Shown: positions 832 to 56,220, counted from the stretch's first letter. The stretch: DNA of 64,000 nucleotides from Candidatus Helarchaeota archaeon (GCA_019058315.1 JAHPZH010000002.1:1133910-1197909), one strand, 5' to 3'. Numbers and translations: made by a program. Notes: generated from the sequence alone by a model not told the origin.

Positions 832-2001
832 TTAATCTGATCGGGGATCCATAATACGACCTAAAAACAAGATATTTTTCGTTTTAACATCCATAATAAA
901 GAATAAAAATGGATGATCTACTCTGAAGATAGGTGTAGGTCTTGGTTCTTCTGGAGCTGCCCCAAGTAACATAACAGCAGCAGTTGCTGCGGCTGCTTCT
1001 GTCCCTTCTTCATTAACATCTACATATGTCTTATGTACCACTTCAGATATGAAGAGATTAAGATTCGGATCTTTTGGAGCAATTCCAGTAAAATCGGCTT
1101 TATCTTGGTCGAATGCGTCAACTATACCCATCTCTTTCAGAGTTTCTGCCAATTTAAATTCAGATGTAATCTTGAATTTTGGGAGATATACCTCAACTTC
1201 TTGGAACAATTTGGGCCTAATCCATCCTGTCAAATTCTCGGATGTTATCGATTTCTCTATTTCTATAATTCCATCGACTTTTTTGGGGAGAATTATACCC
1301 ATAGAAAGCTCATCTCTGAAATATGTTAATTCAAGTGCTTCAAAATCTTGATTTTCATAATAAATATGCATTTCTTTTTGGTACATCATTGGTACCTTCA
1401 CTTTCTGGCCATTTATCAAGGTGAAGGACTCCTCATTTGTATTATGTTTCTTAAATTTTTTGCTCCATTCACTTAAAAAATATATTGCATTAGTTAATAT
1501 CAATCGAGTTAAAACATTCACCATCTCTGGTTTAAGTAAATCTTTAATTTTATTCTCTGTTCTATCCTCGACCCATTTATTGATTTTATTACGAGCATCT
1601 TCTGATTGATTTTTAAAATCCATCTTGGATATTCCACCGAAATAAGAATTTTCAATGATTTCGAGATATTCTGGAAATATCTTATAGTCATCTTGTATCC
1701 ACAAAGCATTTGCAATGCGAAGTTCATAACATTTAGATCTTGATGGGGCATTCAAACCTTCGATGAGATAGTTGAAAGTGGCATGGATGTCAGAATGACC
1801 TTCAAAATGAAGAGTCGAAGCTATCTGGTCTGCTGTTGCACCCTTAGCCCCAGCATACAACATAGCTATACAAATAGAAATACTTATCGGTGAAAAAAAT
1901 AGATTTTTATCATTCGATTTTAGAATTTTATAACATTCTAGAGCGAATTTATTATTTAAAGTAATTAAATTCGCCTCTTTTGCTCTAATATTGACTGTGA
2001 T
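832..2001 (-). CDS. serpin (inhibitory-type hinge, no signal peptide)
   Basis: NAIYF..W, VPMM, LPKFKI, hinge EEGTEAAAAT, FRVDHPFLF; the frame continues upstream of the ORF-track ATG (1863) as ...NNKFALECYKILKSNDKNLFFSPISISICIA; proposed ATC start at 2001 after GGAG. Confidence 0.95.
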   Translation of the reverse strand: MTVNIRAKEANLITLNNKFALECYKILKSNDKNLFFSPISISICIAMLYAGAKGATADQIASTLHFEGHSDIHATFNYLIEGLNAPSRSKCYELRIANALWIQDDYKIFPEYLEIIENSYFGGISKMDFKNQSEDARNKINKWVEDRTENKIKDLLKPEMVNVLTRLILTNAIYFLSEWSKKFKKHNTNEESFTLINGQKVKVPMMYQKEMHIYYENQDFEALELTYFRDELSMGIILPKKVDGIIEIEKSITSENLTGWIRPKLFQEVEVYLPKFKITSEFKLAETLKEMGIVDAFDQDKADFTGIAPKDPNLNLFISEVVHKTYVDVNEEGTEAAAATAAVMLLGAAPEEPRPTPIFRVDHPFLFFIMDVKTKNILFLGRIMDPRSD

Positions 2002-2130
2002 TTTAAACTACTCCAAATAGAATAATTTCAACAAATTAAGTTATGTTATAAATCCCAATATTTAAGCTTTTATAAGAATAATAGATAAATTTTTAGTTAA
2101 ATTATAAAATAAAGTCAGTCTAAATGATTA

Positions 2131-2694
2131 ATGATGTCAACTAACAAGATTTTAATAGCATATGGTTCCCGATATGGAAGCACTGCTGAAATATCAGAAA
2201 AAATATCAATAATATTGAAAGAATTAAATATTGAAAGTGTAGTTTTAGATTTGAAAAAAATAAAAGAAAAACATTGGCCTTCAATTGATGAATTCGATGC
2301 TATTTTGGTCGGTTCGGGTATTAAAATGGGCCGTTGGATGAAAGAACCTCAAAAATTACTAAAGAAGAATAAAGATAAAATTAAGAATAAGGAAAAAATC
2401 CTTGGATTATTCGTAAGTTGTTCCACTGTTCTTGATGATCCTGTGAAAGCAAAGAATGAATATCTAGATAAAATTATGGATAAGCTAAAGTTCAAAGCTG
2501 ATATGTTTGATGCATTTGGACCAGTATTTGATTTCTCAGAAACCTCTAAATTAGGATATTTAACTAAGAAATTATCAATAGCAGGTCTAAATGATTCAGG
2601 AAACATAGAATTTGATCCAAATGCAAGAAATGACTTAAGAGATTGGGACCAAATTAGGAGTTTTGCAGAAAAATTTGCTGAGTTAATAAAATAG
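2131..2694 (+). CDS. flavodoxin-domain protein (HemG/Flavodoxin_5-like)
   Basis: ILIAYGSRYGST FMN loop, GSGIKMGRW, C-terminal DLRDWDQIRSFA. Confidence 0.88.
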   Translation: MMSTNKILIAYGSRYGSTAEISEKISIILKELNIESVVLDLKKIKEKHWPSIDEFDAILVGSGIKMGRWMKEPQKLLKKNKDKIKNKEKILGLFVSCSTVLDDPVKAKNEYLDKIMDKLKFKADMFDAFGPVFDFSETSKLGYLTKKLSIAGLNDSGNIEFDPNARNDLRDWDQIRSFAEKFAELIK

Positions 2695-2862
2695 TGTTTA
2701 ATTTTATCTTTGGAATTCATGATCTCTATAAATTTTGAAATACTTGAAAATGTTAAAATTTATAAATGAAGAACTTTATCTAACTTAAACATAATAAAAT
2801 TCGATTTTACTATTAAAAATTCTTCTAAACTGGCAAAAACCCTAAAATACAATCTTATAAAA

Positions 2863-54358: not shown

Positions 54359-54363
54359 TTTGT

Positions 54364-54900
54364 ATGATAGAAGATTCAAAAACGGTAAACTTTGACGATT
54401 TAGATCCAGAATTTGCTCAAAAAGTTATGGAAGAAATGGGTGAAGATATCCTTGCATGTTTTAATTGCGGATGCTGTACCGGTGGATGCCCCATTGTTCC
54501 TTGGGAAATGAATATGCGAAAAATAATACAAAAGGTCATACTTGGATTTACAGAAGGTGTTCTTTCAAGTAAAATAATTTGGTTTTGCACAGAATGTAAA
54601 GTATGTGGAGAGAGATGTCCCCAGAAGGTTAAACCATTTGAAATAATAATAGCATTACGTCACTTGGCGATTGAAAAAGGAATAATTCCACTTGTTTATA
54701 GAGCTATGGCATTAAATTTAGAGAAATCAGGTAGAGTTGCAGAAATTTCGGAAGCAGTTGAATTAAGACGTGAACGTTTAAACATACCAGAAGCAGGTCT
54801 TACTTTACCAGAAAAAGTAATTAAAGAATTAAAAACAATTTTAACTGAGACATCATTTGATAGGATATTAAAGGAGAAAGATTATAAAGAGGAGGAATAA
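54364..54900 (+). CDS. hdrC: heterodisulfide reductase subunit C
   Basis: CFNCGCCTGGCP, WFCTECKVCGERCP. Confidence 0.92.
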   Translation: MIEDSKTVNFDDLDPEFAQKVMEEMGEDILACFNCGCCTGGCPIVPWEMNMRKIIQKVILGFTEGVLSSKIIWFCTECKVCGERCPQKVKPFEIIIALRHLAIEKGIIPLVYRAMALNLEKSGRVAEISEAVELRRERLNIPEAGLTLPEKVIKELKTILTETSFDRILKEKDYKEEE

Positions 54901-54903
54901 TTT

Positions 54904-56220
54904 ATAACAGAACCTGCTGTTTTGGTCATTGGTGGGGGTATTGCTGGAATTCAAGCAGCCCTAGATTTAGCTGGACAAAATATTAAGACTTATTTAGTTG
55001 AGAAAAAACCAAGTATAGGGGGACATATGGCTATGTTTGATAAGACTTTCCCGACTTTAGATTGTTCTGCATGCATTTTAACACCAAAAATGGTTGAAGT
55101 AGAAAAACACTCAAAAATACAGCTTCATACATATACTGAAGTAAAAAAAATTGAAGGATCGGTTGGAAATTTTAAAGTAGAATTGCTGAAAAAGCCAAGA
55201 TACGTTCAAGAAGAAATTTGCACTGGCTGTGGTGATTGTGTAGAAGTCTGTCCAGTTGAAGTTCAAAATGAGTTTGATAGAGGTTTTGGGGTAAGAAAAG
55301 CGATTTACATCCCATTTCCCCAAGCTATTCCTTTGAAATACATCATAGATAAAGAATCTTGCATCTCCTGTAAGTTATGTAATACAACATGCAAAGCCAA
55401 TGCGATAGATCATGAAGAAAAACCACAATATATTGAAATAAAAGTATCTGCAATTATAATTGCAACAGGTTACGAGTTATTTGACGCAGATTATAAAATA
55501 AACTATCCTAATTATGGTTATAAAAAATATCCTAATGTCCTCACAACCATAGATTTTGAAAGATTTTTAAATGGTAGTGGACCAACCCAAGGTCACCCTA
55601 TTCGATTATCAGATGGGAAAATTCCTAAAAGTATTGCCTTTATTCAATGCGTAGGCTCTCGCGATCCAAACCAAGGTGTAGCAAATTGTTCAAGAGTATG
55701 TTGCATGGTGTCAATTAAACAAGCAATTCTGGCAAAGGAGCATATTCCTAATTGTGAGATATCGATATTTTATATTGATATACGAGCATTTGGAAAGTAT
55801 TTTGAAGAATTTTATAATATGGCTAAAGAGAGATATAAAATAAAATTCATTAGGGGAAAAGTAGCTGAAATCAATGAAGATAATGAAACAAAAAATTTGA
55901 TTGTGAAAGTAGAAAATACTGAAACCGGTGAATTTCTCAATAAAGAGGTAGATCTCGCTATTTTATCTATAGGAAGCAAGATTTCGAAAGGTTCGGTCGA
56001 AATTAAAGATATATTAGAAAATAAATTCCATATTCCGTTTGTTCGTGATGATGGATTTTTCTTTCAAATAGATACAGAAATTTCTGCAGTAGATACAAAC
56101 ATTCCTGGAATTTATGTAACTGGATATGCAACTGGACCAAAAGATATTCCTGATTGTGTAGCTTATGGTAGTGCAGCTGCAACGAGAGCTGCATTAATTG
56201 CAAGAGAGGTGGAATTCTGA
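54904..56220 (+). CDS. hdrA: heterodisulfide reductase subunit A-like, short form (no N-terminal Fe-S domain, no C-terminal ferredoxin)
   Basis: AVLVIGGGIAG, KTFPTLDCSAC, inserted 2x[4Fe-4S], QCVGSRD...CSRVCC, GPKDIPD; proposed ATA start after GGAGG. Confidence 0.9.
   Translation: MTEPAVLVIGGGIAGIQAALDLAGQNIKTYLVEKKPSIGGHMAMFDKTFPTLDCSACILTPKMVEVEKHSKIQLHTYTEVKKIEGSVGNFKVELLKKPRYVQEEICTGCGDCVEVCPVEVQNEFDRGFGVRKAIYIPFPQAIPLKYIIDKESCISCKLCNTTCKANAIDHEEKPQYIEIKVSAIIIATGYELFDADYKINYPNYGYKKYPNVLTTIDFERFLNGSGPTQGHPIRLSDGKIPKSIAFIQCVGSRDPNQGVANCSRVCCMVSIKQAILAKEHIPNCEISIFYIDIRAFGKYFEEFYNMAKERYKIKFIRGKVAEINEDNETKNLIVKVENTETGEFLNKEVDLAILSIGSKISKGSVEIKDILENKFHIPFVRDDGFFFQIDTEISAVDTNIPGIYVTGYATGPKDIPDCVAYGSAAATRAALIAREVEF

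Follow-up and report, generated by a model that had tools for sequence, protein, structure and literature searches.

Evidence for conserved near-cognate start codons in a Loki-type Asgard archaeon

Where does translation begin in genes whose conserved N-terminal sequence lies upstream of every ATG, GTG, and TTG in the frame? The question is raised by a 64,000-nucleotide stretch of an archaeal genome (Candidatus Helarchaeota archaeon, GCA_019058315.1; contig C5:1133910-1197909; here called the window). Four of its genes, for a serpin, a longin-DENN protein (folliculin/SMCR8/C9orf72-like), a DUF2804 protein, and a short HdrA-like protein, carry conserved sequence between an in-frame stop codon and the first canonical start (ATG, GTG, or TTG). 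This had been the core of an original prediction made from the sequence alone, and all its coordinates proved correct on direct reading. Here, we report that no canonical start is available to the conserved N-termini of these genes, that near-cognate codons stand at the aligned positions in independent assemblies, and that such codons are enriched genome-wide specifically at the Shine-Dalgarno (SD) spacing used by ATG. With a probability of roughly 0.85, the four are functional genes that start at AUC, AUU, CUG, and AUA, respectively.

Genome and spacing measure

The assembly comprises 5.79 Mb in 12 contigs (30% G+C). Its nearest relatives are metagenome-assembled genomes labelled Helarchaeota, Hodarchaeota, or Promethearchaeota, and the source is on this ground an Asgard archaeon of the Loki-type class; it is the sole member of its genus among the genomes compared. 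The 3′ end of the 16S rRNA reads GGATCACCTCCT, and the full SD consensus is therefore AGGAGGTGATC. Spacing was expressed as D, counted from where base 1 of this consensus would fall to the start codon. In a gene set of 4,660 open reading frames (ORFs), first canonical starts with a 5-mer SD show a sharp peak at D = 13-16, and TTG makes up 33% of the SD-led canonical starts (217/654), a share that makes plausible the roughly nine further TTG or GTG starts proposed for the window. The TTG share in genome G064, from another Asgard class with the same G+C content, is 16% (11/68).

Results

Read from ATC, the serpin product matches the Pfam Serpin profile (PF00079) over positions 2-370 of 370 (E = 3.9e-122), beginning 32 residues upstream of ATG 1863, where the public call for the contig (343 aa; public protein collection) starts. 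A start at this ATG would drop helix A and the NLFFSP strand; in serpin homologues, 12-15 residues precede the N-x-F motif. The aligned start codon in the window and in independent assemblies is ATC, ATC, ATA, and ATT. The relative with 80% identity has an identical GGAG-TAG-TTT-AAA-ATC, and its NCBI call begins at that ATC; the 81% relative has ATA and keeps the SD motif; and the 65% relative has GAGGTG, 7 nt, and then ATT.

The longin-DENN product has no match in Pfam by sequence. Its AlphaFold model (predicted local distance difference test, 78.7) has a longin fold followed by a helical/DENN part, with the order strand-strand-helix-strand-strand-strand-helix at the N-terminus, and Foldseek matches the model to FLCN, DENND10, C9orf72/SMCR8, DENND1B, and a Lokiarchaeota longin domain (E = 2e-7 to 1e-4); by its predicted fold, the product is a longin-DENN protein. 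In this model, a start at ATG 8230, used by the public call for the contig (316 aa), would cost the longin domain its strands 1-2 and helix 1, so that a eukaryotic-signature domain is indeed among those affected, as had been foreseen. The aligned start codon is ATT in the window and, in independent assemblies, ACG (86% identity), ATA (83%), and ATC behind GAGG (54%); the 83% relative additionally has a GTG four codons upstream of its ATA. Three more distant orthologues have Met exactly at the column of the window's ATT, and of the protein collection's 24 orthologues, about 13 have a short call.

In the short HdrA-like gene, the residues from ATA 54904 to TTG 54922 align with the conserved stretch V-E-P-S-C-L-I-I-G-G-G of the long HdrA paralogues. 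The public call for the contig is 432 aa long; its TTG lies 6 codons downstream of the ATA and at D = 32 from the SD. A relative with 91% DNA identity keeps AGGAGG-AATAA-NNN-ATA, has the synonymous TTA in place of the window's TTG, and offers no canonical HdrA start in its genome.

The DUF2804 product matches positions 1-336 of 339 of its profile (PF10974; E = 3.1e-97), and profile position 1 falls 27 residues upstream of TTG 26831. A relative with 94% identity keeps GGTGA, 6 nt, and CTG. Orthologues begin with ATG, TTG, or GTG at the CTG codon or at the following one, and those at class level have nearly all ATG starts. As relatives carry GTG, ATG, or TTG beside the CTG, the window's gene appears to have lost a canonical start recently. 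This is the weakest of the four cases, its near-cognate start being probable; confidence is greatest in the other three, the serpin, DENN, and HdrA.

Purifying selection acts on the codons that precede the first canonical start: the 45 DENN codons upstream of the ATG show 11 synonymous versus 1-2 nonsynonymous differences, with synonymous/nonsynonymous counts of 8/1 for HdrA, 5/2 for DUF2804, and 6/11 and 9/14 for the serpin. The three window sites that bear an SD (serpin, D = 14; DUF2804, D = 15; HdrA, D = 14) fall inside the canonical peak at 13-16, which upholds the ribosome-binding sites first proposed for them; the DENN gene has no clear one. Looking for ATG at the aligned codon of orthologues returned near-cognates for serpin, DENN, and HdrA and partly canonical starts for DUF2804, and the public calls of 343, 316, and 432 aa are just the N-terminal truncations by gene callers that had been anticipated. 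Coordinates are given in Table 1.

Table 1. Positions of the genes and start-site elements discussed, in window coordinates
Feature	Position	Strand	Reading
Serpin	832..2001	-	From ATC 2001-1999, 389 codons plus stop; first ATG/GTG/TTG at 1863
Serpin SD and stop	2008..2014	-	GGAG 2014-2011; in-frame TAG 2010-2008; D = 14
Longin-DENN	7280..8365	-	From ATT 8365-8363; first ATG at 8230
In-frame TGA closing the DENN frame upstream	8378..8380	-	Direct reading
DUF2804	26744..27793	+	From CTG 26744; first canonical codon TTG 26831
DUF2804 SD GGTGA	26733..26737	+	6 nt before CTG, D = 15; overlaps in-frame TGA 26735-26737
hdrB	53480..54358	+	ATC 53480 (D = 15 behind AGGAGGT 53465-53471) or ATG 53486 (D = 21)
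HdrA SD and hdrC stop	54890..54900	+	AGGAGG 54890-54895; TAA 54898-54900; ATA at D = 14
Short HdrA-like	54904..56220	+	From ATA 54904; public call from TTG 54922

For the genome-wide count, a strict set was built from SD 5-mers that head long ORFs, with no ATG, GTG, or TTG at D = 10-20 in any of the frames and with the ORF's first canonical codon 10 or more codons further on; SD 5-mers within genes, chosen likewise, served as the control. At D = 13-16, the codon in frame was ATT in 26 of 83 cases (31%, versus 4.8% in the control; odds ratio, 9; p = 1e-14), ACG in 6/83 (versus 0.5%; p = 7e-6), and CTG, likewise enriched, in 3/83. Off the peak, ATT was found in 23/407 (p = 7e-10 against the peak). 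Its counts were 4, 11, 6, and 5 at D = 13, 14, 15, and 16 and 0-3 at each other D from 5 to 31, so the enrichment of ATT tracks the spacing of ATG, in agreement with the proposal that start choice is driven by the ribosome-binding site. A near-cognate codon was present in 43 ORFs of the strict kind. A broader count gave, at the correct spacing, ATG 435, TTG 233, and GTG 23, along with ATT 96 (versus 40 and 54 at wrong spacings), ACG 20 (versus 4 and 5), and ATC 17 (versus 7 and 9). From the excess counts, the genome holds about 75-90 SD-led near-cognate genes. GTG starts are rarer in this genome than the estimated number of ATT starts.

Twenty predicted near-cognate cases from elsewhere in the genome were compared with Pfam. 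Four have a domain that starts ahead of the first canonical codon: an FAD amine oxidase (ATT; Rossmann motif, residues 5-40; first canonical codon, residue 73), a TFB (ATT; zinc ribbon, residues 24-65; first canonical codon, residue 49), a 2-oxoacid:ferredoxin oxidoreductase alpha subunit (POR_N, ATA), and an AAA_26/DRTGG protein (ATA). The remaining cases were uninformative in Pfam, and none of the 20 contradicted the prediction.

The same definition was applied within the class to samples of two genomes of another family (400 kb in all), a third genus (400 kb), and the one further genome of the window's family (355 kb). Near-cognate codons occupied the start position in 4/10, 5/7, and 1/5 strict cases, respectively (pooled, 10/22 in 1.15 Mb; p = 1e-4). 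With these similar rates, and with orthologues near-cognate at the aligned codons, the habit extends across the lineage, as had been suspected. In 800 kb of G064, three strict cases were found, two of them CTG behind perfect SDs and none ATT. In that sample (the first 800 kb of G064:C1; aIF1 started by ATG), two long ORFs apparently begin at CTG, behind GGAGGTGA and GAGGTGA.

The initiation factor genes, whose inspection had been recommended, gave a divided result. In the single-copy aIF1 (SUI1) gene, the zinc knuckle is preceded by no canonical start but by AGGAG, 9 nt, and then ATA, from which the product reads Met-Glu-Ile-Cys-Pro-Lys-Cys. The starts of aIF1A, aIF2-alpha, and aIF2-beta are canonical. 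Among 30 class-level aIF1 loci, 22 offer only ATT (15), ATC (2), or ATA (5), with conserved flanking codons. In other Asgard classes, 20 of 25 loci have ATG or GTG and 5 have ATA or CTG, the noncanonical ones being two families with AGGAGG, 9 nt, and ATA and one family with CTG. The initiator-type tRNA has A1:U72, GGG/CCC anticodon-stem pairs, a CAU anticodon, and one intron.

The aIF1 gene lies outside the window (C7:109720-110064, minus strand). A 12-codon upstream ORF (uORF) with ATG ends 4 nt into the ATA codon region, its stop overlapping the ATA, and the TFB gene that starts at ATT (C7:108722) adjoins aIF1 in convergent orientation.

Start selection in this lineage had been called relaxed. 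The word is too weak for the serpin, DENN, and aIF1, whose non-AUG codons persist across orthologues with 54-86% identity. Such long retention suggests that in these three genes the non-AUG start would set or regulate expression, and the likely control route would be the level of aIF1, itself the product of a near-cognate-started gene. As for mechanism, SD/anti-SD pairing would place the 30S subunit at the near-cognate codon, where the ordinary initiator tRNA (anticodon CAU) would pair with one mismatch; presumably, Met is inserted at these starts. Near-cognate starts would be a regular trait of how this Asgard lineage, or at least its class, translates its genes, with ATT probably used most, then ACG, and then ATC, CTG, and ATA.

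Several points weigh against this account. The serpin has an SD of only four bases, and a further near-cognate codon, ATT 1989, stands in frame four codons past its ATC. The DENN ATT is preceded by just a GAG trinucleotide at D = 14, in place of a clean SD. The codon after the DUF2804 CTG is GTG in the 94% relative (GGG in the window), and more distant relatives have ATG or TTG beside the CTG position. ATA is without a clear genome-wide excess in the broader count (58 versus 25 and 65). The gene set came from a crude home-made ORF caller. The G064 sample does not hold significantly fewer cases and is too small to mark out the class as the limit of the trait. Finally, that ribosomes initiate at exactly these codons is something we infer from the sequences.

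Other observations

An 11-codon ATG uORF (8368-8403, minus strand) ends 2 nt before the DENN ATT. The 86% and 83% DENN relatives have 12-codon ATG uORFs that end 12 and 17 nt upstream of the start, in other frames and with unrelated peptides. The window's uORF may be leaderless and followed by reinitiation, or it may be a product of chance. In the gene downstream of DENN (6354-7313, minus strand), ATT 7301 (AGGT, D = 16) is a possible start instead of TTG 7286. Similar adjacent codon pairs in the window are ACG 53255/TTG 53252, CTG 56217/ATG 56220, and ATA 29363/ATG 29360. The window ORF at 2770-3879 was considered as a further case and ruled out, its 31-codon leader looking noncoding.

For hdrB, the start is either ATC 53480 or ATG 53486. 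A D of 21, as for the ATG, is rare among canonical starts (5, versus 234 at D = 15). The ATG is just two codons downstream of the ATC, and hdrB is not among the genes that lack a canonical start. NCBI starts the HdrA of a close relative (L252:1501, GCA_048887025.1) within the gene, at an ATT (product, M-G-G-G-I-A-G), and the first Rossmann strand is thereby lost; the conserved ATA behind AGGAGG, 27 nt upstream, is the better start. Many HdrA paralogues of the window genome and its relatives contain one to three in-frame TGA codons, consistent with selenocysteine. For DUF2804, a related-locus search of the genome contigs returned only two bacterial genes.

Alternative explanations

Ribosomes could reach the near-cognate codons by terminating on an upstream gene or short uORF and reinitiating, with no placement by the SD. 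The arrangement of some genes invites this: the HdrA ATA follows the hdrC stop by 3 nt, ATG uORFs of 11-12 codons end 2-17 nt before the DENN start in three genomes, and the stop of the aIF1 uORF of 12 codons overlaps the ATA. Genome-wide, however, a nearby upstream gene end is found at 26% of near-cognate versus 34% of canonical SD-led starts and such uORFs at 23% versus 27%, and the uORFs are conserved in neither frame nor sequence. As a general explanation, reinitiation is unlikely; at individual genes, HdrA and DENN for example, it may play a part.

The genes might instead be start-loss pseudogenes, or have just lost their starts and be translated barely or not at all. DUF2804, with GTG, ATG, or TTG beside the CTG in relatives and ATG in nearly all class orthologues, is what one would expect of such a history. 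All four frames are nonetheless full length with complete domain coverage, and the codons ahead of the first canonical start evolve under purifying selection, the DENN N-terminus included. For the serpin and for DENN, a non-AUG codon recurs at one and the same position across 3-4 independent genomes (54-86% identity), and the essential single-copy aIF1, TFB, and POR alpha-subunit genes show the same pattern. We regard start loss as quite improbable.

Translation from the first downstream ATG or TTG, giving the shorter proteins of the public calls, is the choice of the gene callers, and for HdrA the TTG is only 6 codons past the ATA. It is very hard to reconcile with a short serpin that lacks helix A and NLFFSP, a short DENN protein that lacks two strands and a helix, an HdrA TTG that is TTA in a close relative and stands at D = 32 from the SD, and upstream codons that evolve as coding sequence. 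There is similarly little to be said for the idea that AUU, AUC, AUA, and ACG are read by a separate initiator-like tRNA with its own anticodon or by a modified initiator: the initiator-type tRNA that was found looks standard, with a CAU anticodon; a search for initiator-like anticodon arms bearing GAU, AAU, UAU, or CGU found none, and an ARAGORN census, which introns limit, gave 26-27 tRNAs; and the codons AUU, ACG, CUG, AUC, and AUA each differ from AUG by one mismatch, which a single CAU initiator would lead one to expect.

Errors of assembly or consensus, or frameshifts at homopolymers, that hide an ATG have a negligible chance of being the explanation, despite out-of-frame ATGs just upstream of DENN (8403) and DUF2804 (26731) and 36 ORFs elsewhere in the genome that resemble frameshift fragments, for independent assemblies from other samples carry the same stops and near-cognate codons, the upstream mini-ORFs differ between relatives in frame and peptide, and the window's other long genes are intact, so that indel errors are too rare to have hit four N-termini. 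Those 36 ORFs, with long coding-like leaders that abut a coding same-strand upstream ORF in another frame, are either genes with a frameshift or indels of the assembly and form a class separate from the near-cognate starts. Also ruled out were a frameshift from the upstream ATGs 8403 and 26731 (relatives keep the stops, and the mini-ORF frames differ), a changed genetic code (TAG, TGA, and TAA all bound frames), and a read-through fusion of HdrA with the same-frame upstream ORF (which is HdrC, not an HdrA N-domain). Functional genes with near-cognate starts remain the reading that we prefer.

Discussion

The closest bacterial precedent is infC, which encodes IF3: it has an AUU start with translational autoregulation, and AUU, AUA, and CUG starts are rare in bacteria (PMC4705826). 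The likeness lies in an SD-led AUU start and in a weak start on the fidelity factor's own gene, through which a low level of the factor would raise its synthesis; aIF1 fills the functional niche of IF3 and rejects AUU in vitro (PMC4705826), as seen in its discrimination against AUU in Sulfolobus solfataricus. Given its weak own start and this rejection of AUU, the aIF1 arrangement parallels infC and eIF1 autoregulation, and by analogy aIF1 would feed back on its own start. The factor here, however, is aIF1, a homologue of eIF1 and unrelated to IF3; its weak codon varies (ATT, ATC, or ATA, and CTG in another family); and dozens of ordinary genes in this Asgard lineage share near-cognate starts. 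To our knowledge, Escherichia coli has few known genes with starts of this kind.

In eukaryotes, near-cognate initiation occurs at CUG, ACG, AUU, and other codons, and eIF1 and eIF5 autoregulate via start stringency (Ivanov et al. 2010 and Loughran et al. 2012, as summarized in PMC4705826 and PMC6237735). Both systems draw on the same codons, each one mismatch from AUG and ACG among them, and a homologous fidelity factor (eIF1/aIF1) sits behind a suboptimal start. The difference is that selection here would depend on SD pairing and there on scanning and Kozak context, and that in eIF1 the weakness is a poor context around AUG, not a non-AUG codon.

Among archaea, initiation has been reviewed as using AUG, GUG, and UUG (PMC4705826). 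Our search of the literature for noncanonical starts in Asgard archaea and Lokiarchaeia returned no genome-wide description and one single-gene ATT anecdote (PMC13394414), the "rare ATT start codon" of the Asgard tubulin AtubA from Kariarchaeaceae (Sci Adv 2026). AtubA resembles our cases in that it was annotated too short and that an upstream ATT with a ribosome-binding site at a plausible distance restores the first beta-strand; it differs in being a single gene of another class, in a methods section, with no statistics, orthologue comparison, or link to aIF1. Ribosome profiling of Haloferax volcanii found about 30% of putative alternative initiation sites to be near-cognate (PMC7261190), but these were set aside as possible false positives and are not the primary starts of conserved genes, and H. 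volcanii is mostly leaderless.

For annotation, the consequence is direct. Standard gene callers allow ATG, GTG, and TTG only, and N-termini are thereby cut or misplaced in an estimated 1-2% or more of the genes of these Asgard genomes. The truncations reach eukaryotic-signature proteins used for structural and evolutionary work, the serpin and longin-DENN calls lack core fold elements, and the published tubulin study met the same problem (PMC13394414).

For biology, frequent and conserved AUU, ACG, and CUG behind SD motifs widen the picture of archaeal initiation, and do so in the closest archaeal relatives of eukaryotes. We tentatively suggest, as an idea with somewhat less than even odds, that Loki-type Asgard archaea run a start-codon-stringency regulon, in which aIF1 would limit itself via its conserved AUU/AUC/AUA start and tune a set of non-AUG genes; members may include longin-DENN and other eukaryote-signature regulators, the serpin, a TFB paralogue, and redox enzymes. 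The near-cognate start of aIF1 makes the time of origin of eIF1-type stringency control directly testable in cultured Lokiarchaeia. If such a regulon exists, non-AUG initiation and eIF1-type control would predate eukaryotes.

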